DNA from: Gammaproteobacteria bacterium
Lineage (GTDB): Bacteria; Pseudomonadota; Gammaproteobacteria; Burkholderiales; Gallionellaceae
Reading direction: 5' to 3'
DNA length: 64,000 nt
Assembly (NCBI GenBank): GCA_018814405.1
Contig: JAHIZO010000005.1
Span: 234,684-298,683 of the forward strand
Part shown: piece by piece, positions 28,145 through 48,954 of the stretch
Layout of the letters: every line of letters begins with the position of its first letter
How positions within the stretch are numbered: the first letter of the stretch is position 1
Program-made: the position numbers and the translations under genes
Notes under the pieces: generated by a model
Database searches by the model: none
Told to the model about the DNA's origin: nothing
The model's input: only the letters and a program-made list of their open reading frames with translations

Positions 28145-28323
28145 ATGTGTGGCGCTCTTGCGCAGCAAGTTAAGCTCGCAAAGCGAGCGGCCGAAGCCAC
28201 AAACGTGCCACTGAGAAAGAAAAAGAATCCAAGCGAAAAGCTGCTGCTTGCCATCCCCGCCCTGAACGGGCTAAATGAAATGTGTCGGGCGTCTGGCACG
28301 CTTGGTTACACGAGAACCCCACC

Positions 28324-28938
28324 ATGAGCGGTTGCTGCAACAACGATTGTTCCATCGATGCCCTGCGCGAAAGGCAGCGCGGGACGTTGTTGAGCGTGCT
28401 CGTCATCAATGCCGTGATGTTCGCGGTCATGGTTGCGGCCGCTCTGTATGCGGATTCCACTGCCCTGCTGGCTGACAGCTTGGACAACCTCGGCGATGCG
28501 CTGACCTACGGGCTCAGCCTGTATGCCGTGTCGCGCGGCGCAGCCGTCAAGGCCAGGGTCGCCTTGTTCAAAGGGGGGCTCATCCTGCTGGCGGGCTGCC
28601 TCCTGTCCGCGCAGATCGTCTACAAGCTGTTCGTCCCCAGCGTCCCGCTGTTCGAAGTCATGGGCGCGTTCAGCCTGCTCGGCCTCGCCGCCAACTCGCT
28701 CTGTCTGTTCCTGTTGTGGCGCCATCGCCATGAGGACGTGAACATGAGTTCCGTGTGGGAATGCTCGCGCAACGACATCGCCGTCAACATTTCTGTGTTC
28801 ATCGCAGCTGGTGCGGTCTGGCTCACAGGTTCCGGCTGGCCGGACATTTTGGTCGCGCTGGGTCTGGTGTGGCTGCTGATGCGTTCCGCCCTGCGGGTGA
28901 TCTCCTCGGCCTTGGCCGCCCTGCGTGCTGCGTCATGA
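28324..28938 (+). CDS. Cation diffusion facilitator-type transporter lacking the cytoplasmic C-terminal domain
   Basis: ALLADSLDNLGD, SVWECSRNDIA..WPD; six hydrophobic segments; Cys-rich start MSGCCNNDC. Confidence 0.78.
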   Translation: MSGCCNNDCSIDALRERQRGTLLSVLVINAVMFAVMVAAALYADSTALLADSLDNLGDALTYGLSLYAVSRGAAVKARVALFKGGLILLAGCLLSAQIVYKLFVPSVPLFEVMGAFSLLGLAANSLCLFLLWRHRHEDVNMSSVWECSRNDIAVNISVFIAAGAVWLTGSGWPDILVALGLVWLLMRSALRVISSALAALRAAS

Positions 28939-29519
28939 ATCGCCTGTCCCTGTTCATCCTGCTGTCGCTGCTGACCTTCAGCAGCCACGCCCAACCGAAA
29001 GGAGCCACCATGACCGATACCAATCAAACCGCCTACCTTGCAGGAGGTTGCTTCTGGGGCATGGAAGAGTTGGTGCGACAGATTCCCGGTGTGCTGGAAA
29101 CCGAAGTCGGCTACGCCGGCGGTGATGTACCGAATGCGAACTATGACATCGTGAAGATGGGCCGTAGCGGCCATGCCGAATCGTTGAAGATCGTGTTCGA
29201 CCCAGCCAAGCTTACCTACCGCCATCTGCTGTTCGAGTTCTTCCGCATGCATAACCCCACCACGCGTAACCAGCAAGGCAATGACCGAGGCACGCAGTAC
29301 CGCTCAGCCATCTTCTATGTCAGCGACGAGCAGAAGAACACCGCCGAGGAAGTGATTCGCACTGTGGATGGTTCGGGAGAATGGGGGGCAAAAGTAGTGA
29401 CAGAAGTCACACAGTTCAAAGACTTCTGGCGCGCCGAGGAATATCATCAAAAATATCTGGTCAAGCATCCGCACGGCTACACCTGCCACGTCAACCGTGG
29501 CTATCGTCTCGGGGAATAA
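28935..29519 (+). CDS. msrA: Peptide-methionine (S)-S-oxide reductase with predicted signal peptide (alternative start 29010)
   Basis: AGGCFWG, QGNDRGTQYRSAIF, AEEYHQKY. Confidence 0.92.
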   Translation: MNRLSLFILLSLLTFSSHAQPKGATMTDTNQTAYLAGGCFWGMEELVRQIPGVLETEVGYAGGDVPNANYDIVKMGRSGHAESLKIVFDPAKLTYRHLLFEFFRMHNPTTRNQQGNDRGTQYRSAIFYVSDEQKNTAEEVIRTVDGSGEWGAKVVTEVTQFKDFWRAEEYHQKYLVKHPHGYTCHVNRGYRLGE

Positions 29520-29521
29520 GG

Positions 29522-29983
29522 ATGAAATTGCGCATTCTGGATGGCGTTGCCCTCACCCTCTGGGTCGGTAGCTTATGGACGATCGGCTATCTGGCCGTAC
29601 CTATCCTGTTCCAAGCCCAACCCGATAAGCAACTGGCCGGCATGCTGGCCGGTGAGATGTTCCGCGTGCAGGGGTTTGTGGGCATCGCGTGCGGTGTCTA
29701 TCTGTTGCTGCGGGATGGCGTGAAGTTCGGCAAGCTGTCTCTGCGTCAACCCGCCTTTCTCGCCATCGCCCTGATGCTGCTCATCACGCTCGCCCTCCAG
29801 TTCGGCATCCAGCCGCTGATGGCCGGACTCAAATCCCAAGCTTTACCTCTGGAAGTGATGAACAGTTCATTGGCAAGCAACTTCTCCATGTGGCACGGCA
29901 TCTCCAGCATCCTGTATCTGATCGAGAGTCTGCTGGGACTTTCCTCGGTCTATCTTTTTCTGCGTAACAATCTAGTGCACTGA
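29522..29983 (+). CDS. DUF4149-like membrane protein
   Basis: TLWVGSLWTIGYLAVPILF..AGMLAGEMF..FSMWHGISSILY; four TM segments. Confidence 0.75.
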   Translation: MKLRILDGVALTLWVGSLWTIGYLAVPILFQAQPDKQLAGMLAGEMFRVQGFVGIACGVYLLLRDGVKFGKLSLRQPAFLAIALMLLITLALQFGIQPLMAGLKSQALPLEVMNSSLASNFSMWHGISSILYLIESLLGLSSVYLFLRNNLVH

Positions 29984-33219: not shown

Positions 33220-33244
33220 AAAAAGGCACACCGAAGTGTGCCTT
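33220..33244 (-). terminator. Intrinsic terminator closing the TonB/Csp cluster
   Basis: Minus strand AAGGCACAC-TTCG-GTGTGCCTTTTT (cUUCGg tetraloop). Confidence 0.8.
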
Positions 33245-33268: not shown

Positions 33269-33709
33269 TCAGGCTGCGATCTTCTTGCACTCATCGTAGC
33301 AAGCGATGCACGACTCTTTGCAGGCCTTGCACTCAGGGTGCTTCTCGGTCTTCTTGCATTCCTCTTCGCAGGCCTTGCACACTGCCATACAGACCTTGGC
33401 GAGTTGCGGCAGATACTTGGAATCCGCAGCTGCCATCTGCTGCAAGGCACCACACATCGAGATCACCTGACTGGAAGTCTTTGCGCATTCCGCCATGCTG
33501 GTGTCGCCCTGCCCCAGCAAGACGATGCAATGCTGCAAGCACAGATTGGCTTTGGTCACGCAATCGGCTGCGGCGGCGATCAGCTTGTCGTTCACCGTTC
33601 CCATGACATGGTGCTCATGCCCCATGTCCATATGTTCGTGGCTGGCACCGAATGCCGTACCGGCCGCGGCCATGGCGACTGCACCAAGCAATAGTTCTCT
33701 GCGATTCAT
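33269..33709 (-). CDS. Tat-exported four-helix-bundle copper storage protein (Csp1/Csp2-like)
   Basis: Twin-Arg signal MNRRELLLG..AFG; His/Met-rich linker SHEHMDMGHEHHVMG; 14 Cys in CxxxC/CxxC arrays (ECKACKESCIACYDECKK). Confidence 0.85.
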   Translation of the reverse strand: MNRRELLLGAVAMAAAGTAFGASHEHMDMGHEHHVMGTVNDKLIAAAADCVTKANLCLQHCIVLLGQGDTSMAECAKTSSQVISMCGALQQMAAADSKYLPQLAKVCMAVCKACEEECKKTEKHPECKACKESCIACYDECKKIAA

Positions 33710-33767
33710 GAATATCTCCTCAAATTGATAGGACTGCCAAGCGGACGGCAGTCTATCCATGCGTGAA

Positions 33768-34181
33768 TTATTTGGAAAGCGTGATGAAGGAAAGCTTGGC
33801 GACTCCCGCCTTCTGCGCCAGCGCCATCAACCCCGCCACGCGACCATAAGACACGGCGCTATCCGCTTCGATCTGCAACTGGAACTGCGGATCGGCGGCA
33901 CGAGTAGCCAGCATCGAAGCCAGTTCGGTGTCGTTCACCGGCTGTTTGTCCATCTCCACCTTGCCCTGTGCATCGACCACCAAGCTGACTTGTTGCGGCT
34001 TGTCGTTCTGCTGCACCGCATCGGTCTTGGGTAGGTTGATCTTGAGCGACTGCGGCGCCAGCAGGGGCGCGGTGATGATGAACACCACCAGCAACACCAG
34101 CATCACGTCGACCAGCGGCGTGACGTTGATTTCGCTCATCATGCTGCCTTCATCTTGTTGGGAAGAATTGCCGAAAGCCAT
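33768..34181 (-). CDS. exbD: Biopolymer transport protein ExbD
   Basis: SEINVTPLVDVMLVLLVVFIITAP. Confidence 0.9.
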   Translation of the reverse strand: MAFGNSSQQDEGSMMSEINVTPLVDVMLVLLVVFIITAPLLAPQSLKINLPKTDAVQQNDKPQQVSLVVDAQGKVEMDKQPVNDTELASMLATRAADPQFQLQIEADSAVSYGRVAGLMALAQKAGVAKLSFITLSK

Positions 34182-34190
34182 ACCCCCTCC

Positions 34191-34847
34191 TTACAGCTTG
34201 AAATCTTGCTTTTGCGCCAGACGCATGAAGTCATGCGCGAAGTTCTCAAGGTCCGTCACATGCACCTTGAGGCGACGCAGGAAGAAGTTATACGCCAGTA
34301 CAGCAGGCAAGGCGGTGGCGATGCCGATAGCAGTAGCGACCAGTGCCTCACCGATGGGACCTGCCACCACATCCAATGAAGCGGTTCCAGTCTGGCCGAT
34401 GTTCTGCAAGGCATGCATGATGCCCCACACCGTACCGAACAAGCCGATGAATGGTGCGGTGGAACCGATGCTGGCCAGTTCGGCCAAACCGCGTTCGTGA
34501 TAGCGCTGGATGTTCTGCAATTGTTGACGCAGCATGCGCTCCAGCACGTCTTGCGGCGCGCCGGAATGTTTTAGATCCTGTTGTGCGGAATTCAGGTTCT
34601 TCAATTCTGAGAATCCAGCCTGTGCCAGCCTGGCGATATCGCCTTTGCTCGATGCGCTGATCTTTTCCGCCCCACTCCACTCACGTGCCGCCCAGAATTC
34701 CCTATTGAAGCGCTGGTCATGCTGGCGTGATTCATATTGCTTCCATAGTTTGAACAAGGCGATGGACCAGGTCACGATGGACAAAAAGATCAGCAACAGC
34801 AAAGTGCCCGATACGATGGGTGAGTTGATGGAAAAGAAATCGTTCAT
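34191..34847 (-). CDS. exbB: MotA/TolQ/ExbB proton channel
   Basis: LASIGSTAPFIGLFGTVWGIM, IGEALVATAIG. Confidence 0.9.
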   Translation of the reverse strand: MNDFFSINSPIVSGTLLLLIFLSIVTWSIALFKLWKQYESRQHDQRFNREFWAAREWSGAEKISASSKGDIARLAQAGFSELKNLNSAQQDLKHSGAPQDVLERMLRQQLQNIQRYHERGLAELASIGSTAPFIGLFGTVWGIMHALQNIGQTGTASLDVVAGPIGEALVATAIGIATALPAVLAYNFFLRRLKVHVTDLENFAHDFMRLAQKQDFKL

Positions 34848-34851
34848 GCGC

Positions 34852-35502
34852 TCATTCCTCTAAAGAAAATTTGATGGGTACCAAGAACCACTGTGTGATC
34901 GGCCGGCCGAAGCGCGTGGCGGGTGAGAATTTCCAAGTCTTGACGGTTTGTAGTGCGGCCCTGTCGAGGATGTCGAAGCCGCTGCTGCTTTGCAGTTTCA
35001 CTTCCCCCGCTCTGCCCTCGGCCAGCACTTCGACATTGAGGACCACCTTGCCCTGATAGCCCATGCGCCGTGCCACCAGCGGATACGGCGGGCGCGGATT
35101 GTTCAGATAGTCGGCGCGGTAATCCGGTTCGGCATCCAGTTGCACGGGGGATGGCGGGGTCTCCATCACAGGAGCGGGCGGCGTCTCTTCCTGCACCGCG
35201 GGTTCGGGTGGTGCTTCCGGTTCGATCACGCGCGGTTTGAGTTCCGGTTTCGGCTCGGGCTTGATCTCGGGCTGCGGTGAGACATCCGCCTGCTGCATCT
35301 TCACATTGGCAAAAGAGATGGACATCTCGTTCACCGCCACCATGGGCGGTTCCGGTTGTGCCAGCCAAAAGACGAACAGCATCAGATGCGCGAGCACCAC
35401 GATGCCGACCACAGTCAGCCGCTCGTACCAGGGCGATTCCAGTGTCGCGTCGTGTAACGCGTTCATATATGTCAGCGGCAGGTTGAGAACAAGGGCCGAC
35501 AT
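34852..35502 (-). CDS. tonB: Energy transducer TonB
   Basis: TM segment with His (LAHLML), Pro/Glu-rich linker, PYPLVARRMGYQGKV..SSG..LDRAA..W.F.P. Confidence 0.88.
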   Translation of the reverse strand: MSALVLNLPLTYMNALHDATLESPWYERLTVVGIVVLAHLMLFVFWLAQPEPPMVAVNEMSISFANVKMQQADVSPQPEIKPEPKPELKPRVIEPEAPPEPAVQEETPPAPVMETPPSPVQLDAEPDYRADYLNNPRPPYPLVARRMGYQGKVVLNVEVLAEGRAGEVKLQSSSGFDILDRAALQTVKTWKFSPATRFGRPITQWFLVPIKFSLEE

Positions 35503-35503
35503 G

Positions 35504-37591
35504 CTACCAGCGCCCCTCCAGCGTCACCAGCAAGGAACGATAGCCGACGCTGCGACTGTTCAAGGAATAGACATCACTGCCATTGGTGAAACGCGTGTTC
35601 TGCACGGTATCCGTCGCCAGCAGATTCTTGGCTGTGGTGCGCAGATTGAACACGGGTGACAGTTTGTACAGCCAGTAAGCATCCAGCGTGGTACGCGCAT
35701 CGGACACGGCATACACCTCGCCCGGGATGTCGGTCACGCTGCGCCCCGATAGTTGCAGCGACACGCCGTAACTGGATTTGAGCGTGGGCAAGTTCTCATC
35801 TAGCCCGGCCGAGAATATGTACTTGGGCGTGTCGCGCGCCATGCGCGAGATGCCGAGGCGCGTATCGTTCACCGTAGCATGTGGCAGGGTCAGATGCGCT
35901 TTGACCGTCGCGCCTTTCCAGCCGTAGGCATCGGTGCGCACTTTGCCGTCCAACTCCCAGCCCCAATGACGCGCACTGCCTTCGTTCTGCGGCCTGTCCA
36001 CCCAGCGGGTGCCTTCCAGTTGCACGCGATGCTCGGTGAAATCCTGTGTGCTGCGTGCGTAGAAGTTGAGCCCGAACACACCGGTGTTATCGGGCAGGTA
36101 ACGCTCCAGCACCGCTTCGAAGTTCACGCTACGCTCTGGACGCAGATTAGGGTTGCCGCGCGTGTCGGCTTCCGTCGGTGTGTTCGCCGCCACGCTCAGT
36201 GTTGCGGCATCGCTGATCTCGCTCAGTCTCGGCATCTTCAGCCCGGCACCCAGTGAGGAACGGACTAGCCATTGTTCCTGCGGTGCCCAGCGGATCGCCA
36301 GCGATGGCATCACTTGTCCGTGCTGCTGGGCGACAGTGCCGGTATCTAGATCGACACGTTCGCCGCGCAGACCGTAGGTGAAGGTGGTCTTGTCGGTCAG
36401 CATCCAGTCGTCCTGCAACCACAGGATGCTTTGCCGTTCCTGATCGGCATAGTTGGACGTCACGCCGGAGAAGGTCTGCGTATCGCTGCGTTTCAGCAAG
36501 GCGTGCTCCAGCCCCACCGCCAGCAGATGCTGTTCGCCCAGCGGCCTGTCCAGCCTGAACGCCATGCTGGTTTCGTGCTCGTTGCTGGCGGTGTCATCCG
36601 TGTTTGTACTGGCTGTGCCCACTGCGTCATGCGAAAAACGCAGCACATGCACATCGCGCGTGCCGTGGTTGAGCGAGACGCGTCCGGTTAGCTTGCTGCC
36701 TCCCAGATGTTTTTCGCCTTCCACGCGCAGCCGTTGCAGACGACGGCGCATCTCCTCGCGGCTGCTGCGGTCGCCATTGCTCACCCTATTGCTGCTGCTC
36801 GCCGGACTGGCTGCTGTCTGCGTCATGTCGCTGTTGCGCTTGCCCAGTCCGTCAAACAACAAAGGCGCGACGGTCAACGTGTCACGCCCCTGCTTCCAGG
36901 TCATGCGTGGCGACATCACGAATTCGCGGAAAGTGAACAGGCCTTCCTCCTTGTCCTGCTCGTTCAATACCGTGACGCCAGCTGTCTCGTTGTGTCGCTC
37001 GATCACGCTGCCGGCAGGACGGCGATGCATATTGAGCGTGATCGGCAGCGTCCAGGCAAAGTCGCCCTCGCCGCCGTTCTCGGTCCAGGTGAACTGGCCG
37101 GTCGGCTCATCACCGTTCATGCCGGCGGCCACTTTTACGGCTGTAGAACGTTTGCTGACCGGTTTCTTCATCACCAGATTGACGGTCACCGATGCCGCAC
37201 CGCCGTATTCCGCAGACGAACCGCGCAGTATCTCGACACGCTCCAGCTCACCCGCAGGCAGACGCCCGACCACCCCCGCCACGATGCGCGAACCGCCCGC
37301 CGGCCGTTCGCCATCCACCAGTATCTGCACGCTGTCGCGCGACATGCCGCGCGCGCGGTGTCCGTCGCCTTTGACTTCCACGCCTGGCAACTTGCCCAGC
37401 ACCTCGCCGATGGTCATCACGCCCATGTTCTCGATGTCCTTGCGACCGATGATCACCTTTTGCGTGGTGGAGTCGCGGCGTGCCGCGATGTCTTCCTGCT
37501 TGCCGGTGACGGTGACTTCTTTTAATGAGGGTTGATCTTCCGCGAATGCCAGAAGCGGGAGAAAGGCGAATAACAGACAGCTACGTTTCAT
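35504..37591 (-). CDS. TonB-dependent receptor (second)
   Basis: Signal peptide, TonB box EVTVTG, plug LERVEILRGSS, GNPNLRPE, C-terminal Trp. Confidence 0.88.
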   Translation of the reverse strand: MKRSCLLFAFLPLLAFAEDQPSLKEVTVTGKQEDIAARRDSTTQKVIIGRKDIENMGVMTIGEVLGKLPGVEVKGDGHRARGMSRDSVQILVDGERPAGGSRIVAGVVGRLPAGELERVEILRGSSAEYGGAASVTVNLVMKKPVSKRSTAVKVAAGMNGDEPTGQFTWTENGGEGDFAWTLPITLNMHRRPAGSVIERHNETAGVTVLNEQDKEEGLFTFREFVMSPRMTWKQGRDTLTVAPLLFDGLGKRNSDMTQTAASPASSSNRVSNGDRSSREEMRRRLQRLRVEGEKHLGGSKLTGRVSLNHGTRDVHVLRFSHDAVGTASTNTDDTASNEHETSMAFRLDRPLGEQHLLAVGLEHALLKRSDTQTFSGVTSNYADQERQSILWLQDDWMLTDKTTFTYGLRGERVDLDTGTVAQQHGQVMPSLAIRWAPQEQWLVRSSLGAGLKMPRLSEISDAATLSVAANTPTEADTRGNPNLRPERSVNFEAVLERYLPDNTGVFGLNFYARSTQDFTEHRVQLEGTRWVDRPQNEGSARHWGWELDGKVRTDAYGWKGATVKAHLTLPHATVNDTRLGISRMARDTPKYIFSAGLDENLPTLKSSYGVSLQLSGRSVTDIPGEVYAVSDARTTLDAYWLYKLSPVFNLRTTAKNLLATDTVQNTRFTNGSDVYSLNSRSVGYRSLLVTLEGRW

Positions 37592-37608: not shown

Positions 37609-38256
37609 TTAAACAAATAAAAAGATGCGGCGCAATCCCAGCACGATCAGTACCGCGGCTGCGCCCCAGCGTATCCAGCGTGTCAGCCAGTCGCGGTTGT
37701 CGCGCAGCTGTTTGCCGAGCAGGCTGATCAGCGGTAATAGTATCAGCAGCGGTGTGAGCGCCGCGCCCAATCCGAACATCACGCCATTGGCCATGCCAGA
37801 CTGGATGCTACCTGCCGCCGCGCACACAGCGAGCAAGGATGCCAGCGGCGCACAGGGCGTGAGGCTGAGTGAGAAACCGAGCAGCAATGGCGGCGCACTG
37901 CCCGCGCGTTTTGCTACACCGCACGGCGCATGTGCCGATTTACTGCGCAGCAACCACAGCCCGGCGGCGATGGATGCGGCACCGATGACCAGATTGCCGC
38001 TGCCGCCCTTCATCGCCTGCGACAACCAGCTACCCGCCGCTGCAGCCAGCGCACCCAGCATCGTGTAAGCCAGGATGCGTCCGCTGACGAACAGGGTGGT
38101 ATCGCGCAGTGCCTGCATCTGGCTACCGCCCCGCCCCAAGATCCATGTGCCCATGAACGGCAGACAGGTCGCGGTGCAGGCGGTCAGCCCCAGCGATGCA
38201 CCGAGCAGCCACACGGTGAACAGTGTGGTCTGCTGCGATAGTTGTATCGCATCCAT
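37609..38256 (-). CDS. DsbD_2/TauE-like (UreH-like) six-TM Cys-containing membrane protein
   Basis: GLTACTATCLP (CxxxC), GRILAYTMLG, SLTPCAPL, FGLG. Confidence 0.7.
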   Translation of the reverse strand: MDAIQLSQQTTLFTVWLLGASLGLTACTATCLPFMGTWILGRGGSQMQALRDTTLFVSGRILAYTMLGALAAAAGSWLSQAMKGGSGNLVIGAASIAAGLWLLRSKSAHAPCGVAKRAGSAPPLLLGFSLSLTPCAPLASLLAVCAAAGSIQSGMANGVMFGLGAALTPLLILLPLISLLGKQLRDNRDWLTRWIRWGAAAVLIVLGLRRIFLFV

Positions 38257-38260
38257 CGGT

Positions 38261-39322
38261 TCAGCCCTTGTTCTCTGCCGGTTTGGGCAGGATGGGGATC
38301 ACGCGCTTCTTGGGCTGACCTTCCGGCGATTCATGTTTCACCCGTGCTTTGTAGTAGTCACGCGAAGAGCCGAACAGTCTGAAGCCGAAGAACTTGAGTT
38401 GGATCACATCATCGTCCGGACAGTATTCGGCGCAACGTCCGCACATCGTGCAATCCTCGTGGAAGGCTTTGCTGCCGAACGCGGTGCCGATCTCGTGGAT
38501 GTCCATCGGACAGGCTTTCTCGCACACGCCGCACTTGGCGCATTTTTCGTGCGCATCCTTCTTCACCAGCCGCATCGGCGACAGTTTCTGGAACAGCGCG
38601 TTCCAGGACAGCAGCGGGCAGATGCGGCAGAACGGCTGACGCACGGCCAGCGCGGCGATGATGATGAAGCCGAACATGGCATTTCCCAGCGCACCGAGGA
38701 AGAAATTGATGTTCGTTCCGGTGCGCACGGCGAGTTGTTCGGTATCCGCCGTCAGCAAGGTGGTGGCGATACGCGACGGGCAGACCTGGCAGAACGGGTC
38801 GCCCAGTTCGTTGGCGACGGTGCCCATGCCGGCCAGTGTCGGCAGGCCCAGTACCAGCACCAGCAACATGAACCATTTGACCGGACGCACCGTGCCAACG
38901 CCCTCCTTCGTGAAGCGTTGCAGCGGACGGCCGAGGCGGCGACCGATCTTGTAGATCAGTTCCTGCACCGTGCCCAGCGGACAGACCCAGCCGCAGAACG
39001 CTTTGTTCAAAAAGAAGAAGAACATGAAGAACACACCCACCGTGATCAGTGTGGGCAGGAACACGTTGAGCGCGACATCGCCCGCCTTGGCCAAGGCTGC
39101 CCCGATACGGTGATGCAACTGGTGTTGCGCACTGATCAGGATGCAATGGTCACCGGTCACTTTATCGTAGGCGCATGACAGGGACGGCAGCGCCTTGGAG
39201 ATGCGATCCACGGTGTAACTGCCAAGCAGCGCGCCGCCGTACACGGTGACGAACAACATGATGATCTGCACGGTGAAGCGCAAACGCGCCAGCGTGGGGA
39301 AGATATTCTTAAGCATTTGCAC
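38261..39322 (-). CDS. NapH/MauN/CcoG-like membrane 4Fe-4S protein
   Basis: FCGWVCPLG, FCQVCP, FCRICP, two ferredoxin motifs (CAKCGVCEKACP, CTMCGRCAEYCP) and several TM helices. Confidence 0.82.
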   Translation of the reverse strand: MQMLKNIFPTLARLRFTVQIIMLFVTVYGGALLGSYTVDRISKALPSLSCAYDKVTGDHCILISAQHQLHHRIGAALAKAGDVALNVFLPTLITVGVFFMFFFFLNKAFCGWVCPLGTVQELIYKIGRRLGRPLQRFTKEGVGTVRPVKWFMLLVLVLGLPTLAGMGTVANELGDPFCQVCPSRIATTLLTADTEQLAVRTGTNINFFLGALGNAMFGFIIIAALAVRQPFCRICPLLSWNALFQKLSPMRLVKKDAHEKCAKCGVCEKACPMDIHEIGTAFGSKAFHEDCTMCGRCAEYCPDDDVIQLKFFGFRLFGSSRDYYKARVKHESPEGQPKKRVIPILPKPAENKG

Positions 39323-40199: not shown

Positions 40200-42482
40200 T
40201 TAGAAGCTGAGCGATGCGCCGATTGTCCACACACGACCCGGATTGACCGTGATGGACACGTCTTCCGCGTCGTACACGCCGTCGCCGTTGCCGTCCGAAC
40301 CGCCACGGATGGTGGAGTAGTAATAGCGGTCGAACAGGTTGTCGATACGTGCGAAGGCCGACCATTTCATCTTGCCGTCACTCTTGAACTCGTAGTTCGC
40401 CATCATGTTGTAAACGGTACGGCCACCTACCCACACCACGTTCACTTCATCCGCATAGATGCCGGATTGCGTGTTCATCTCGCCGGTGAAGATCCAGCCT
40501 TCCATCGGGCGATAACGCGAAGTCAGATTCAGTTTGTGTTTGGGCGTGCGCGGCACGACATTACCGGTGTTGTTGTACAACACCGAAGCCAGCGGCACGC
40601 TGCGTGAGCCCATTGACATCCAGTAGGTGTCGTTGCGTGTGAACACGGCATTCAGGTAGGTGTACGCCATATCGGCAGACCAGACTTCGCGGCTATCGGT
40701 TTTGATGGAAACTTCCAACCCGCGATTACGCACGCCGCCGATGTTCTGGTATTGCTCCAGCGCGTTGGTCAGCGTCGCACCTGTGGTGGATTGGTATTGA
40801 CCGCCGGTGTTGAGGATGAAGTCCTTGCGGTCGATCTGGAAGATCGCCACATCGGTATCCAGCCCGACACCCAGCAACTCAGTCTTGGCGCGCAGGCCGA
40901 CTTCTGCGTTGTAGGAATGCTCGGGCTTCAGATCCGGATTGGCGGCCACCGTCCCTGTCGGGGTGATGGTGCCGCCGTATAGCTGTGACACGGTCGGCAC
41001 GCGGAAGCCGGTGGATAGATTGGTGTACAGCTCGCGTTCTTCGTTGAAGGCATAGTTGAAGCCGATTCGTTCCGACAAGACGTTGAATGTCTTCTCACCC
41101 GTGGTGCTGCGACCCTCGGCGATCTGCGTTGCGGTGAGCGGCAGATTGCTGACGTACTTCTGACCGATATTGTCGAAGCGCGCATTGAAGGTGGCGGTGA
41201 GCGGTGTGCTCAATTGCCATTTCAATTCACCGTAGATGGCGCGCGTGTCGGAGGTGGAAAGGCTATCCTCGGTCAATGCGCCAGCCAGATTCAACGGATT
41301 GGAGAATCCTACTGCGGTGCTGCGGCTGGTATAGGTCACTAGGTTGTTGGTCAGCGTACGATCCTCGAACTGTTGCAGATCCAGACCGCCCATCCAGGCG
41401 ACTTGCGTGCCGCTCTGGCGCCATTCCGCCTTGGCACCACTCTGCTGCTGCTGTGTATCTCGTCCGCTGACATAGGCATCACGCATGGTGCTCATGTCGC
41501 TGGCGGTCGAAGTGCCATACAGGAATGCGCCCGTGCTGTCGCGCAGGAAGCCGTTCGGGTTCTGCCAGCCGAAAGTGTGATCCTTGAACAGATAGGTGTT
41601 CACCATCAGGTTGCTTCCTGTCCCCGTGTCCTTTGAGTAGGACAGGTTGAACTTGTCCAGCGTCACATCGTATTTGCGCGCGTAGTCCTTGCCGCCGTCC
41701 ACACTGGTCGGATCGAGCATGGCAGCCGTCACGCCTTTGACCGTACCGTGGCTATCCTTGTTGCGGAGGGCATGCTCGAAGCCAAAGGTCATATCGCTGG
41801 TGTCATCGATCATGTACTGCAACTTGCCATCCACATAGTCGCGCCCCCAGTCACCCTGATCGTGAAAGGTCTTGGATTGCAGCTTGGATTTCTGGATGTG
41901 CCCCACCCAGCGACCTTCGGCGAATCCGGCGCGCAGGACGCCTTTGTAATATTCATAGCTGCCGACTTCGGCGCTGGCCATGTAGCCCGCCATCTTGGCG
42001 CCGCGTTTGGTAGTGATGATCACCGCACCAGACAGTGCATCCTCACCGAACAGATAAGAGGCCCCGCCCTTGATGACCTTGATGGATTCGATGTTGTCCA
42101 AGTCGATGTTCACACGCCCGGTGCGCTCCTGCACCGGCACACCGTCGATCACGATGGCCACACCCGGCTTCTCGCCCATGTAGCGCTGCGCCTCGACACC
42201 GCGCAGCATGATCTTCACCGAGTCGCCGCTCTGTACTTCGGCCGAAACACCCGGGATGGATTCCAGCACTTCGACGATGTTCTTGCTGTGTTGCTCGTCG
42301 ACGGTGTTACCGCTGATGTGATTCACATTAGAGGGTTCGCCGCGCTTGGAATCGAAGCGGTCGTCGATGGTAGTGGATGAAACGGTCACTTCCGGCAAAG
42401 CGCCGATCTCGGCCCAGCTTGCTTGCGGTGCGGAAAGTGCCAAGGCGACACATATTGCGATCTGTTTGCTGCTTGTCTTCAC
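40200..42482 (-). CDS. TonB-dependent receptor (first gene of the cluster)
   Basis: GTG start after GGAGG, signal peptide, TonB box EVTVS, plug IDGVP..NIESIKVIKGG..GAVIITTK, NPDLKPE, C-terminal Phe. Confidence 0.9.
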   Translation of the reverse strand: MKTSSKQIAICVALALSAPQASWAEIGALPEVTVSSTTIDDRFDSKRGEPSNVNHISGNTVDEQHSKNIVEVLESIPGVSAEVQSGDSVKIMLRGVEAQRYMGEKPGVAIVIDGVPVQERTGRVNIDLDNIESIKVIKGGASYLFGEDALSGAVIITTKRGAKMAGYMASAEVGSYEYYKGVLRAGFAEGRWVGHIQKSKLQSKTFHDQGDWGRDYVDGKLQYMIDDTSDMTFGFEHALRNKDSHGTVKGVTAAMLDPTSVDGGKDYARKYDVTLDKFNLSYSKDTGTGSNLMVNTYLFKDHTFGWQNPNGFLRDSTGAFLYGTSTASDMSTMRDAYVSGRDTQQQQSGAKAEWRQSGTQVAWMGGLDLQQFEDRTLTNNLVTYTSRSTAVGFSNPLNLAGALTEDSLSTSDTRAIYGELKWQLSTPLTATFNARFDNIGQKYVSNLPLTATQIAEGRSTTGEKTFNVLSERIGFNYAFNEERELYTNLSTGFRVPTVSQLYGGTITPTGTVAANPDLKPEHSYNAEVGLRAKTELLGVGLDTDVAIFQIDRKDFILNTGGQYQSTTGATLTNALEQYQNIGGVRNRGLEVSIKTDSREVWSADMAYTYLNAVFTRNDTYWMSMGSRSVPLASVLYNNTGNVVPRTPKHKLNLTSRYRPMEGWIFTGEMNTQSGIYADEVNVVWVGGRTVYNMMANYEFKSDGKMKWSAFARIDNLFDRYYYSTIRGGSDGNGDGVYDAEDVSITVNPGRVWTIGASLSF

Positions 42483-42551: not shown

Positions 42552-42581
42552 GTGACATGATGTCGCGCGGCGGATTGTCGC
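42552..42581. promoter_or_regulatory. Two tandem RegA/PrrA-type boxes (putative)
   Basis: GTGACATGATGTCGC immediately followed by GCGGCGGATTGTCGC. Confidence 0.5.
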
Positions 42582-45580: not shown

Positions 45581-46528
45581 ATGAGCAAACTCCCGCCCGC
45601 CATCTTCCTGATGGGGCCCACTGCCAGCGGCAAGACCGGTGTGGCGGTGGAACTGGCGCAGCGTCTGCCGGTTGAACTGATCAGCGTCGATTCAGCACTG
45701 GTGTTCCGCGATATGGACATCGGCACCGCCAAACCGGATACCGCCACCCTCGCCCGCGCACCGCATCACCTCATCGACATCATCGATCCGACTGAAGCCT
45801 ATTCCGCCGCCGCTTTCCGCAAGGATGCGCTGCGCTTGATGGCCGACATCACCGCACGCGGCAAGGTGCCGTTGCTGGTGGGCGGCACCATGCTCTACTA
45901 CAAGGCACTGCGCGAAGGATTGAGTCCCTTGCCGCAGGCGGATGCTGCTTTGCGCGCGCAACTGGATGCGCAGATCGCGCAGCATGGCATCGAAGCATTG
46001 CACGCGAAACTGGCCGAGGTGGATGCCGAGACGGCCGATCGTTTGCACAGCACCGACACGCAGCGCGTGCAGCGCGCGATGGAAATCTATCTGGCTTCGG
46101 GAAAGCCGATGTCGGAGCTGATCAAGCAGCAGGAACAAAACCCGTTGCCATACGACATCCTGTCCATCGCCCTCATCCCTTCGGACCGTTCTGTGCTGCA
46201 TGACCGGATCGCTTCACGATTCGAGAAGATGCTATGCGATGGACTGCTGGATGAATTGCGCAGTTTGCGTGACAAATATCCTTTGCATCGCGAGATGACA
46301 TCAATGCGTTGCGTGGGCTACCGTCAGGCTTGGGAGTATCTGGAAGGCGAGATCGATGAAGCGGGTTTGATGGAAAAAGGCATCGCTGCCACACGCCAGC
46401 TCGCCAAGCGACAGCTCACTTGGTTGCGCAGCATGCCTGAGAACATTGAGGTGGATTGTCTTGCGCCGGGACTATTCGAACTCGTACTGGCAAAGATCGA
46501 ATCGGCGGTTCAGTTCAGTCCGGATTGA
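45581..46528 (+). CDS. miaA: tRNA dimethylallyltransferase
   Basis: [38 protein letters not shown]. Confidence 0.95.
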
Positions 46529-46976
46529 CATTCTCTTTTCCGTTTTGTTGCGCGAGCCAAAAGTCACGGTACTTCATATCTTCGTTGAGCAGGTGACTCA
46601 CTAGCAGCTGCTTGACCTGCAAACCCGCCTCCACCCAGTCGTAATCCTGTTCGCTCTTTTCTATGCGTTTCATGATCTCTGTAAATATATTTGCTGCCGC
46701 AGCATGTTCGCGCGCGTGTTGTTCGGCTTCCGGATAACCCCATTCTATGAACAGAACTTCTTCGTGGCCAAAATGGGCTACCGCATCATCAATGACATCC
46801 TGCATGCGTTTACGGACTTCGCTCAGCGACATGCGCTCGGCGATGGCTTCGTTCAGGGCATTGATGAGTTCGATGAAGTGTTTGTGCTCGGCATCGATCT
46901 CGGGGATGTGCACACTGAGTTCCGGACTCCATTCCAGACGCCATGGCATGGGGTTATTGGGGGAGTCCATATCCAT
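46515..46976 (-). CDS. Bacteriohemerythrin (single domain)
   Basis: W..LSV....ID.EH, HFGHEE, H..EH, HLLNED di-iron ligands; start could also be 46970 or 46949. Confidence 0.88.
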
Positions 46977-48954
46977 CTTCCTTAAACAGTGCGGTACAGG
47001 CATCCACTACTTGTGCGTCATATAGTGTGCCGCGGCCCCGTGCAAGTTCTTCAAGTGCCAAGTCGATACCCAGCCCAGCCCGGTAAGGGCGATGCGATGA
47101 CATGGCTTCCATCACATCTGCCACACTCAGGATGAGCGCACCCGACAGGATCTCGTCACCCGCCAATCCCTGCGGATAGCCCGAACCATCCATGCGTTCG
47201 TGATGTTGCAACACCATCTGCGCGATCGGCCATGAGAAGTCGATGCCTTTCAGGATGTCGTAACCTGCTTGCGGATGCATCTTGATCAGGCTGTACTCGA
47301 TATCATTCAGTCGCGTCGGCTTGCTCAATATCTCGGCGGGAATACTGATCTTGCCCAGATCATGCACGACCCCGGCCAGATGTATCACCTGCTGCTCTTC
47401 CTCCGAGCGGCCCATTTTCTTTGCGATAGCCTGCGCCAGATCTGCCACCCGCTTCTGGTGACCGGAGGTGTAAGGGTCGCGCATCTCGACGATGCTGGCG
47501 ATGGCTTCCACGGTTTGCAGCATGTTCTTCTGCAGACGTTGCGCATGCTCGCTGTGCGCCTCCTTGATGCGCAGGGTGAGTATGCCAAAGGACAGGTCAC
47601 CCGACATTTCCTCCAGCAACATCACTTCATTATCGTCAAATACATCCGGCTTTTCGTCAAACAACACCATCACTCCGAACGCACGGCCTCCGTCCATCAG
47701 TGGCAATGCGATGCATGAGGCGTAACCGTATTGCCGTGCATTCTCGTGCCAACTCTTCAATTCGGGATTGGTGAAGATATCTTGCACCACTTTGGTTTCG
47801 CTGCTGATGATGGCAGCACCGGCAGGACAGGATCCATGCCTTTCCACATTCCAAGTCAACGGGGATGGATTTGGCCATCCCTTTTCAAAACCGGCCAGAG
47901 CAGTTTGTTCGATCGTCTGCTCTGCATAATCACGTGCATAGCCTATCCACGCCAAGCGGTAGCCACCGACTTGAACCGCGACATCACACATCTCCTGTAG
48001 CAGAGTGTTCTCTGCGGTCGCATGGATCAGCGCTTGATTGCCTGCGCTGATGGTACGCAAGGCGCGATTGGCGCGCTGCAGAGTGATTTCATGTTGTTTC
48101 CGCTCGGTGATGTCGATGGTATAGCCAGCCAGATAGGTCTTGCCTCCCAAGGGGATGGGAAACTTGATGGTTATGTAACTTTTACCGTTCAGCTCTTCAT
48201 CCAGATGCAATACCTTGCCGCTGGCAACGGTACTCCAGTCATCTGCGGTGATCTTCGCTGCAAAGTCAGCCGGAAACAGCTCCGGCATGGTCTTGCCTAT
48301 CATTTCCTTGGCGGCGATGCCGATCATATTCACATAGTTCTCACTGGCAGCCAGCACCTTGCTTTCGACAGGCGATACTTCCTTGAGAAAGGCATAGATC
48401 GGGGACTCTTTTATGAAAGCCAGTAGCAACTCCCGACTTTCAAGCAAACTGTTTTCCATCTGTATGCGTTCTGTCACATCCTCCAGCGAATGCACACTGA
48501 ACAGATAGGTTCCCTGTTCGTTATGGACTGGGAAGGCACGTGATCGGTAGAAACTCCCCTCGAAGGATATTGTTTCTTCCTCGCCGTCCTGACCGCGTTC
48601 CATGGCATGCAAACAACCTGGCAAAGGGCCAGATGACATGGGGAATGCCTCGAAATAGGATTTGCCGATCAGTTCCTTGAACGGAATGCCGGCCAGTTTT
48701 TGATAGGCGCGGTTGGCACGCAGGATACGGAACTCGGAATCATGCAGGAACACCGGGTCGTCGATGGCATCCAGTGCGGACATCCATTCCTGATGGGCCT
48801 GCTCGATCTGCATGCGTATCTCTTCCAAGCCATCTTGAGTCTCAGGGCAACTTTGCTGTCCGCTCTCCAGCGCGGCAATCTGCGCTTGCAGCTCTGCGAT
48901 CGTGCGTCGTGCAGACTCGAGTTCGTTAAGCAATGAATTGGATGTATCGCTCAC
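46954..48954 (-). CDS. PAS-PAS-GAF-HD-GYP c-di-GMP phosphodiesterase
   Basis: RDPYTSGHQKRV, HDLGK, HHERMDGSGYPQGL, RPYR; GTG start after GAGGAGG. Confidence 0.9.
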   Translation of the reverse strand: MSDTSNSLLNELESARRTIAELQAQIAALESGQQSCPETQDGLEEIRMQIEQAHQEWMSALDAIDDPVFLHDSEFRILRANRAYQKLAGIPFKELIGKSYFEAFPMSSGPLPGCLHAMERGQDGEEETISFEGSFYRSRAFPVHNEQGTYLFSVHSLEDVTERIQMENSLLESRELLLAFIKESPIYAFLKEVSPVESKVLAASENYVNMIGIAAKEMIGKTMPELFPADFAAKITADDWSTVASGKVLHLDEELNGKSYITIKFPIPLGGKTYLAGYTIDITERKQHEITLQRANRALRTISAGNQALIHATAENTLLQEMCDVAVQVGGYRLAWIGYARDYAEQTIEQTALAGFEKGWPNPSPLTWNVERHGSCPAGAAIISSETKVVQDIFTNPELKSWHENARQYGYASCIALPLMDGGRAFGVMVLFDEKPDVFDDNEVMLLEEMSGDLSFGILTLRIKEAHSEHAQRLQKNMLQTVEAIASIVEMRDPYTSGHQKRVADLAQAIAKKMGRSEEEQQVIHLAGVVHDLGKISIPAEILSKPTRLNDIEYSLIKMHPQAGYDILKGIDFSWPIAQMVLQHHERMDGSGYPQGLAGDEILSGALILSVADVMEAMSSHRPYRAGLGIDLALEELARGRGTLYDAQVVDACTALFKEDGYGLPQ

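Follow-up and report, generated by a model that had tools for sequence, protein, structure and literature searches.

A conserved polyferredoxin, DsbD_2 and DUF4198-like gene triad in a Gallionellaceae TonB-receptor operon: a candidate reductive copper-acquisition system

Within a 64,000-nucleotide stretch of Gallionellaceae DNA (hereafter the window; GenBank assembly GCA_018814405.1, contig JAHIZO010000005.1, positions 234,684 to 298,683), a nine-gene operon encodes two adjacent membrane proteins, the 353-amino acid polyferredoxin P0001 and the 215-amino acid DsbD_2 protein P0002. We propose that this pair would form the inner-membrane portion of a system for reductive copper acquisition that depends on TonB, a reading to which we assign a probability of about 0.5. 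Copper is favored by a Csp1-family copper storage protein encoded in the operon, the Met/His-rich tails of the exported DUF4198-fold protein P0003 encoded next to the pair, a predicted thiolate-rich path through P0002, cupric reduction by the related protein CcoG, an operator shared with other genes of copper uptake and respiration, and the precedent of the CrtA-CrpH system. Both the identity of the metal and the biochemistry of the system, including copper capture, electron relay, Cu(I) passage and storage in Csp1, are what we infer from sequence.

The source genome (2.38 Mb, 98.7% complete) belongs to a Gallionellaceae iron-oxidiser, and the closest matches of its proteins carry the names Sideroxydans or Sideroxyarcus. 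The nine genes run in the same direction on the (-) strand, from 42482 to 33269, bounded by a conserved operator and a terminator-like hairpin. Their order, 5' to 3', is TonB-dependent receptor 1, P0003, P0001, P0002, receptor 2, TonB, ExbB, ExbD and Csp1.

Results

The conserved unit is a three-gene core

We retrieved 55 related loci from species-representative genomes. Genes for a DUF4198-like protein, the polyferredoxin and the DsbD_2 protein were intact and in the same order in every one of them, and the P0001-P0002 gene pair was adjacent in all 55. In the window, the three genes, all on the (-) strand, are tightly packed: the stop of P0003 (39309..40196) overlaps the start of P0001 (38261..39322) by 14 nt, and the TGA stop of P0001 (38261-38263) is separated by 4 nt from the ATG of P0002 at 38256 (gene 37609..38256). 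The pair had been described in the first-pass annotation as a two-component unit. That description does not hold, as the conserved unit is three genes including the one for the DUF4198-like P0003, not the pair alone, and in other lineages the DUF4198-like protein is fused to the iron-sulfur protein.

Carriers of the triad include Gallionellaceae, Methylophilaceae, Sulfuricella, Thiobacillus, Competibacter, Chromatiaceae, Azospira, Rivihabitans and a Sulfurimonadaceae metagenome-assembled genome (MAG). In the seven non-Gallionellaceae loci checked (four by Pfam and three by tblastn), a receptor gene lay directly upstream of the triad. TonB/ExbBD, receptor 2 and Csp1 are variable additions, with receptor 2 present in only part of the related loci. 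The first-pass annotation had suggested that a metal imported via TonB either receives electrons from the pair or is moved by it. The setting is in keeping with this: the pair always lies in a TonB-dependent uptake context beside a protein with a metal-binding fold. Reduction, translocation and the choice of metal are proposals.

The last gene of the operon (33269..33760, (-) strand) encodes the Csp1-family copper storage protein, of the four-helix-bundle type, which scores 146.4 bits against TIGR04401 (cut-off 100), is rich in Cys and carries an RRELL twin-arginine signal; its likely start is the Met of MNRRELL. Csp1 genes stand beside the triad in 19 of the 55 loci, from Gallionellaceae and closely allied Nitrosomonadales-type MAGs, and the other 36 loci have the triad without Csp1.

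Rivihabitans pingtungensis DSM 29661 (L052:2581-13764) has three TonB-dependent receptor genes and a gene for a 551-amino acid PepSY_TM protein around the triad, and a copy of the operator described below lies 78 bp before the DUF4198-like gene. This strain is cultured and looks tractable as an experimental host.

P0001 is a polyferredoxin set apart by predicted periplasmic cysteines

P0001 contains two ferredoxin motifs, C261-x2-C264-x2-C267-x3-C271-P and C291-x2-C294-x2-C297-x3-C301-P, together with three Cys-Pro motifs, CGWVCP (110-115), CQVCP (178-182) and CRICP (232-236), and a loop Cys pair, C50 and C60. These motifs, the gene coordinates and the 4-nt spacing to P0002 were all found as they had been annotated at first. 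Since all 14 Cys of P0001 and H67, H70 and H71 are 98-100% conserved among 48 orthologues, down to 45% identity, the motifs are not a product of chance. When relatives at about 25-30% identity were added, the Cys-Pro and cluster cysteines were still invariant or nearly so.

The AlphaFold2 (AF2) model of P0001 (predicted local distance difference test score, pLDDT, 87.6; predicted TM-score, pTM, 0.85) has four long helices, at about 11-44, 83-105, 139-165 and 204-226, and after them a compact ferredoxin domain. The positive-inside rule would put the basic loop 107-140 on the cytoplasmic side together with the C-terminal domain, in agreement with the topology of NapH. The motifs C110-x3-C114-P, after transmembrane helix (TM) 2, and C232-x2-C235-P, after TM4, are then predicted to lie at the cytoplasmic membrane face near the clusters, and C50/C60 with H67/H70/H71, as well as C178-x2-C181-P, in two periplasmic loops. 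That two of the Cys pairs are predicted to face the periplasm had not been remarked in the first-pass annotation. We find it plausible that this outward-facing Cys/His set, which distinguishes the P0001 subfamily, is a metal or redox site.

The domain matches, Fer4_5 (PF12801) at residues 90-133 with 48.6 bits (cut-off 22) and Fer4_10, Fer4 and Fer4_4 above their cut-offs at residues 258-304, place P0001 in the Fer4_5 (NapH/CcoG/NosR-like) polyferredoxin superfamily. The kinship to RdxA, CcoG and NapH originally suggested is therefore correct at the level of the superfamily; membership in either NapH/MauN or CcoG proper did not survive scores, tree and BLASTP. The best curated matches of P0001 are indeed NapH/MauN models (E 3e-16), but it scores only 59.6 bits against TIGR02163 (NapH/MauN; cut-off 213.05) and 57.2 bits against NF007013 (the NapH equivalog; cut-off 234). 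In a phylogenetic tree, 11 bona fide NapH/MauN rows formed a clade of their own (Shimodaira-Hasegawa-like approximate likelihood ratio test, SH-aLRT, 99), and P0001, its orthologues, its distant relatives and the fused forms described below formed a separate clade (SH-aLRT 96), with long branches between the two. The tree came from a quick search and was rooted on CcoG; its NapH/MauN rows were taken from the same class and score 317-370 bits, and one NapH row (L147) is a wrongly picked open reading frame. The outcome that was to refute the first-pass annotation did not occur, with P0001 clustering apart from bona fide NapH/MauN and no Nap module in the genome. In this 98.7% complete genome, the best match to the NapA model reaches 157 bits (cut-off 930), and no NapH is found above cut-off. 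In the operon and the roughly 10 kb annotated on each side of it, there are no napAB/napG or mau partner genes, and the earlier statement that nap, mau, nos and cco genes are missing nearby holds over that distance. We therefore rejected NapH/MauN membership on the basis of scores far under the cut-offs, the separate clade, and a genome without NapA or NapH.

Membership in CcoG/RdxA/FixG was rejected as well. The genome has two very similar CcoG paralogues of 476 amino acids, both encoded next to cco genes, and ccoNOQP-ccoGH lies on another contig than the operon. One CcoG copy follows ccoNOP and precedes a ccoH-like gene (C1:275605-281231); the other stands beside a gene for a sigma-54-type regulator on a further contig (C10:91638-93110). 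BLASTP of P0001 against these two copies gave E values of 0.001 and 0.037, with only the Fe-S and Cys motifs aligned. P0001 ends after the ferredoxin domain, without the C-terminal Ig-like domain of the CcoG type, and has no ccoGHIS context.

The P0001 subfamily is narrow, because only 21 clusters in a library of 1.8 billion representatives reach E 1e-30. Solved-structure searches with the sequence returned ferredoxin-domain matches only, and fold searches with the model found no relative of the membrane domain (best Foldseek E 0.18; best Z of a wide VIA-align search 3.6). This absence of a solved membrane-domain relative does not show that the fold of P0001 is new.

P0002 combines a DsbD_2 fold with an additional membrane cysteine

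P0002 matches PF13386 (DsbD_2) over almost the whole profile (69.1 bits, cut-off 24.9; residues 17-208, profile positions 4-198 of 199) and DsbD_TM (PF02683) at residues 11-84 only (33.1 bits, cut-off 27.1). All its neighbours in a protein atlas are clusters of DsbD_2 proteins, some under the name 'cytochrome c biogenesis TM region' and the others under 'UreH domain'. Its motifs are CTATC (C27/C31) in TM1, TPC (C135) in TM4, and H109-x-x-C112 in the TM3-TM4 loop. C27, C31, P33 (as C31-L-P33) and P134-C135-x-P137 are invariant in 29 P0002 sequences, in which C112 is nearly invariant; in a set of 54 sequences, C112 is 98% and H109 87% conserved. From hydropathy and the positive-inside rule, both judged by eye, and the full-length DsbD_2 match, P0002 is predicted to have six TM, with the N-terminus outside and the TM3-TM4 loop inside. 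The six-TM protein with CTATC and PC motifs that had been noted downstream of P0001 was thus recovered, with its six TM predicted from that hydropathy and that match. A six-TM arrangement with the N-terminus outside is the layout of CcdA.

The earlier comparison of P0002 to CcdA and DsbD is supported by the DsbD_2 match and by Cys in TM1 and TM4. P0002 is predicted to share with CcdA/DsbD and the UreH-like DsbD_2 proteins a six-TM inverted-repeat fold, and it has the Cys residues beside Pro in TM1 and TM4 that are essential in CcdA/DsbD; we take these to correspond to C163 and C285 of DsbD. It differs from CcdA/DsbD in having an extra invariant Cys (the CxxxC motif), a cytoplasmic HxxC motif and no thioredoxin-like partner, and in being always paired with a polyferredoxin. 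The extra residue is a third invariant membrane Cys, located one helical turn from the first, whereas CcdA needs two. Distant orthologues among metagenome DsbD_2 proteins keep TPCAP in TM4; their TM1 contains CGTCC, and their cytoplasmic loop a CxxCxxC motif.

Two functions are compatible with this sequence. P0002 may be a permease, or it may be a CcdA-like thiol-disulfide shuttle that keeps the periplasmic Cys of P0001 and the Cys of Csp1 reduced, with the metal staying in the periplasm or entering otherwise. The shuttle would then draw its electrons from thioredoxin or from P0001, at the cytoplasmic face with the Fe-S and Cys-Pro motifs. We regard the shuttle as a possibility to be taken seriously, though a rather improbable one. 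The full-length DsbD_2 match, the DsbD_TM match and the TM1/TM4 Cys-Pro residues at DsbD/CcdA positions all agree with it, as do the two invariant Cys pairs in predicted periplasmic loops of P0001. These Cys, like those of the Tat-exported (twin-arginine translocated) Csp1, would need a reductant in the oxidising periplasm, and C112 of P0002, on the cytoplasmic face, could meet a donor. However, Pfam and curated-profile scans detected no thioredoxin-like domain in the nine operon genes, and the CGTCC and CxxCxxC segments of the distant orthologues resemble metal ligands rather than a two-Cys relay. Moreover, in the 36 loci without Csp1 that proposed client is missing. We lean to the permease on three grounds: the third invariant Cys, the abundance of Cys in the loops of the distant orthologues, and an operon that encodes no partner with a thioredoxin fold.

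P0003 resembles periplasmic metal-capture proteins of the DUF4198 fold

The 295-amino acid exported protein P0003 scores below the Pfam cut-off for DUF4198 (PF10670; 24.8 bits, cut-off 34), matching over residues 128-211 only, and was assigned to this fold by its AF2 model (pLDDT 84.7). The top eight Foldseek matches of the model were all Zcp of N. gonorrhoeae (E 3e-9 to 6e-8; target TM-score 0.55-0.60), and Ni-bound IsDUF4198 was matched with E 2e-6. Zcp was reached by the fold search alone; searches with the P0003 sequence and its family profile did not find it. Zcp and IsDUF4198 are periplasmic metal-capture proteins (PMC12663993, PMC12537917), and Zcp can bind Zn, Cu, Co and Ni through its His triad (PMC12663993).

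P0003 has a C-terminal TM anchor and, after the signal peptide, a variable His/Met-rich stretch, which in orthologues reads, for example, HxGHDHAAMMQGM or is a longer Met-rich run. Conservation is 92% for H30, 68% for H32 and 98% for H160, residues that recall the Zcp triad H29/H31/H142. The P0003 model has the fold of Zcp and IsDUF4198, and its HxH close to the mature N-terminus, together with its conserved core His, may correspond to that triad. In contrast to these soluble proteins, P0003 is predicted to be tethered to the membrane, has a Met-rich tail and falls below the Pfam cut-off. Furthermore, zcp is monocistronic and Zur-regulated, whereas the P0003 gene is always coupled to a polyferredoxin gene.

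A putative RegA/PrrA-type operator precedes the operon, with similar sites before respiratory and copper-receptor genes

The start codon of the operon is preceded, at a distance of about 70 bp, by the 15-bp palindrome GCGACA-N3-TGTCGC. The window copy, placed by motif search at 42552..42566 on the (-) strand, has one mismatch (GCGACA-N3-TGTCAC) and is abutted by a degenerate second copy at about 42567-42581. Across the 55 loci, 74 of 100 sites with at most one mismatch fell in operon promoter windows, which make up 8.5% of the sequence. The operator was present in the promoter window of 43 of 52 loci, often in tandem. With one mismatch each, it fits the RegR and PrrA motifs GNGRCRTTNNGNCGC and YSCGGC(5)GWCRMA, as quoted in PMC5506826, and we putatively assign it to a regulator of the RegA/PrrA type. 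The genome encodes a RegA-like (ActR/PrrA/RegA) protein (203 bits, cut-off 250) and a RegB-like protein (249 bits, cut-off 350), both of them clear best matches.

The best other site in the genome (TGCGACAAAATGACGCA, one mismatch) lies between regB and a divergent gene for an OprC/NosA-type TonB-dependent copper receptor (TIGR01778, 731 bits, cut-off 472), which thus stands beside the regA/regB homologues (C8:79337-83386, locus L139). A weaker site with two mismatches was found about 110 bp upstream of ccoN. From this distribution, we infer redox control of the operon through RegBA, shared with respiratory oxidases and the copper receptor. Inspection of the 124-bp promoter region, made by eye with no formal scan, detected no Fur, Zur, NikR or CueR-like box.

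Related loci carry additional copies. In two Gallionellaceae relatives (L009:1877-6611 and L013:5673-6571), extra operators occur just upstream of the orthologous operon. Judged from translations only, these precede cydAB and genes for a 104-amino acid c-type cytochrome, a cytochrome c'-like protein and a small GNAT-like protein; in L009, sites stand before cydAB and two c-type cytochrome genes. In five other loci (L027, L030, L033, L035 and L038), a further copy follows the DsbD_2 gene, about 2.65-2.9 kb past the DUF4198-like start. This position suggests that in some relatives an internal RegA-type promoter may serve the downstream receptor/TonB genes.

Other sites in the genome were set aside. 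The intergenic ones at C4:222364 and C2:142225, before an ABM/B12-binding gene pair and a GGDEF gene, were treated as chance matches, and a perfect-looking site at C10:93570 lies within coding sequence, downstream of a ccoG copy.

Fused forms occur in a second gene context in anaerobes

Proteins of 580-615 amino acids were found in which an N-terminal TM, a beta-rich ectodomain and a second TM precede a P0001-like part in which both outer Cys pairs are retained. The ectodomain aligns in register to the P0003 family (hhalign probability 76%, E 2e-5, 124 columns). Fused or unfused forms are encoded in 80 metagenome loci (L059-L138) from human gut, rumen, termite gut and digesters, and most of those long enough to show it have a DsbD_2 gene about 2.1 kb downstream on the same strand. 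Between or before these genes, the metagenome clusters encode two HGD-D family proteins and a BcrAD/BadFG (HgdC-type) ATPase. One of the HGD-D proteins scores 333 bits on the double-cubane reductase model (cut-off 350). In one example of this conserved cluster, locus L069 (4793-10537), the fused DUF4198-like/NapH-like protein is encoded together with a DCCP-like HGD-D protein, another DCCP-like protein (333 bits), the HgdC-type ATPase and DsbD_2; in L080, a single protein of 672 amino acids joins the DCCP-like protein to the ATPase.

Functional coupling of the three proteins is supported by the fusion and by this second, independent gene context. The cytoplasmic Fe-S domain of P0001-like proteins is probably the point at which electrons enter.

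Discussion

A working model for reductive copper acquisition

In the copper model, the receptor would deliver copper, as Cu(II) or in a complex, to the periplasm, where the tethered P0003 would capture the metal at its His site and His/Met-rich tail. P0001 would take up electrons at its two cytoplasmic 4Fe-4S clusters and relay them outward via the membrane-face Cys-Pro motifs, so that Cu(II) would become Cu(I) at C50/C60, C178-x2-C181-P and H67/H70/H71 on the outer side. P0002 would then pass Cu(I) inward by way of C27/C31 in TM1 and C135 in TM4 to H109/C112 in the cytoplasmic loop; alternatively, Cu(I) would stay in the periplasm and be stored in Csp1. Because the redox sensor RegB/RegA would set expression, the client would be copper-dependent respiration, namely the cbb3 oxidase.

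Several observations weigh against this model. Csp1, confined to 19 loci of close relatives, may be a lineage-specific add-on. Neither operon receptor matches the curated copper-receptor model TIGR01778, and receptor 1 falls below every curated substrate-specific cut-off. The characterised DUF4198 proteins prefer Zn or Ni (PMC12663993, PMC12537917). The topology of P0001 is a prediction, and no transmembrane electron-carrying cofactor is visible in the protein. As to regulation, the window's own operator taken alone is not significant (13 of 100 shuffles reach the observed count), and the RegA and RegB homologues score below the equivalog cut-offs. Finally, the fused ectodomains conserve acidic residues and Tyr and have no conserved His, Met or Cys, for which reason the wider family may handle another metal, and the ATP-driven, very low-potential reductase of the anaerobe version exceeds what the reduction of Cu(II) needs.

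These last points bear on whether the same architecture serves a different cargo, such as an Fe(III)-siderophore, Ni, Co, Zn or a chelate needing reduction, with Csp1 a passenger in Gallionellaceae. We consider this unlikely, least so for the anaerobe variant, though it draws on several features of the system. Characterised DUF4198 proteins bind Zn (Zcp) or Ni (IsDUF4198), and in other bacteria they are linked by transcription to Fe starvation. Proteins of PF13386 carry the name 'UreH domain', and UreH is a nickel-uptake label. A polyferredoxin, FtrD, is part of an iron transporter, the Rivihabitans triad stands beside a PepSY_TM protein and three receptor genes, and the anaerobe version is wired to the very low-potential reductase. 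Nevertheless, a path lined with Cys is better matched to the soft ion Cu(I) than to Fe, Ni, Co or Zn, the tails of P0003 are Met-rich, and the terminator comes only after the Csp1 gene, which is thus part of the operon. The OprC/NosA-type copper receptor gene and ccoN have the operator in common with the operon, and, judged by eye, it is not a Fur, Zur or NikR box. No cobalamin riboswitch was found in the window or in 11 metagenome loci, and no other Rfam element was detected before the operon or in those loci.

That P0001 is an ordinary NapH/MauN-type quinol dehydrogenase subunit, with its enzyme encoded elsewhere and its place in the operon incidental, is very improbable, since against the NapH/MauN best curated matches and a common four-TM, Cys-Pro and two-cluster layout stand the low scores, the separate clades, the genome without NapA or NapH, the strict synteny of the triad in 55 of 55 loci and the existence of fusions.

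Relation to known systems

The closest precedent for the copper model is in B. pertussis, where the TonB-dependent copper importer CrtA and the putative periplasmic copper reductase CrpH support heme-copper oxidases (PMC13038864). In both cases, an outer-membrane TonB-dependent importer is co-transcribed with an inner-membrane redox protein, and the role proposed is copper supply to heme-copper oxidases. There is functional overlap with ccoG. However, the redox partner in CrtA-CrpH is a heme-binding PepSY_TM protein. Here, the Pfam scan found no PepSY_TM gene among the operon genes, and the corresponding components would be a 4Fe-4S polyferredoxin, a DsbD_2 protein and an anchored DUF4198-fold protein. 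The Bordetella operon is also copper-repressed, whereas the Gallionellaceae operon carries a RegA-type operator.

CcoG (RdxA/FixG), a member of the same superfamily, is the cupric reductase of cbb3 oxidase assembly; it uses two 4Fe-4S clusters, and its reduction of Cu(II) has been shown (Marckmann et al. 2019, as summarised in PMC7558416). P0001 resembles it in being a Fer4_5 membrane protein with two 4Fe-4S clusters and Cys motifs beside TM helices. Yet CcoG has an Ig-like domain and a ccoGHIS context; P0001 is without both and adds two Cys pairs and three His in predicted periplasmic loops. With NapH/MauN, P0001 shares four TM, Cys-Pro motifs after TM2 and TM4, and a C-terminal two-cluster domain, but only one of its three Cys-Pro motifs is CX3CP, the other two being CX2CP.

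FtrD is a NapH-like membrane polyferredoxin that acts as an electron sink. It belongs to the ferrous iron transporter FtrABCD, a metal-uptake system in which redox chemistry has been proposed to accompany transport (PMC11966278). Compared by description only, that system has an Ftr1-type permease, a P19 protein and a cupredoxin, and no TonB-dependent receptor, DUF4198 or DsbD_2 protein. In the literature searched, we found no published description of the triad gene set. The parts, and the general logic of an outer-membrane importer with an inner-membrane reductase, are known already.

Implications

How bacteria acquire copper for respiratory oxidases is poorly known: few importers (OprC/NosA, CcoA and CrtA) and a single cupric reductase (CcoG) have been described. 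If the copper model is right, the module adds a complete route of capture, reduction, transfer and storage for these oxidases. Its carriers are iron- and sulfur-oxidisers, methylotrophs and wastewater bacteria, in which key enzymes are limited by copper. Operons for metal uptake do not usually answer to a redox sensor in place of a metal sensor, so the control proposed here would be out of the ordinary as well.

A broader proposal, which we offer as speculation that we think will more probably fail than hold, is that the triad could be a so far unrecognised, widespread machine for the reductive capture of metal outside the cytoplasm, in which low-potential electrons from the cytoplasm would pass through a NapH-like protein to an outer Cys/His site and the ion would enter through a thiolate-lined channel of the DsbD fold. 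If so, an electron-moving DsbD fold would have been re-used to move Cu(I), and the NapH-type domain would be a transmembrane electron wire. Gram-negatives would feed the machine by TonB-dependent receptors under RegBA control. Gut and rumen anaerobes would power it by the ATP-driven double-cubane reductase. The fused variant ties the module to reductases of this class, and the proposal would give these orphan enzymes a physiological role. The module draws its parts from families whose mechanisms are still in question: electron transfer across the membrane by NapH-type proteins, the cargo of DsbD_2/UreH-like proteins and the function of most DUF4198 proteins.

Other features of the operon and window

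The remaining operon genes, all on the (-) strand, were assigned by domain content. Receptor 1, the first gene (40200..42482), encodes a 760-amino acid protein with Plug and TonB_dep_Rec_b-barrel domains. P0002 is followed by receptor 2 (35504..37591; 695 amino acids, Plug and barrel domains), TonB (34852-35502; TonB_C domain), ExbB (34191-34847; MotA_ExbB domain) and ExbD (33768-34181; ExbD domain). After Csp1, a terminator-like hairpin at 33223..33244 on the (-) strand, with a 9-bp stem including 5 GC pairs and then a T-run, marks the end of the operon. On the other side, the 124-bp promoter region separates the operon from the divergent mutL, and the farther flanks carry pntAB, a DAHP synthase gene and miaA.

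Two neighbouring gene pairs were observed. At 46515-48954 on the (-) strand, a gene with a hemerythrin domain runs into the start of one for a PAS-GAF-HD(HD_5) signalling protein, and together they may be an oxygen- or iron-sensing pair. Just past pntAB, at 28282-29983 on the (+) strand, a CDF cation-efflux gene stands with a gene for a DUF4149 membrane protein; these may be a metal-handling pair.

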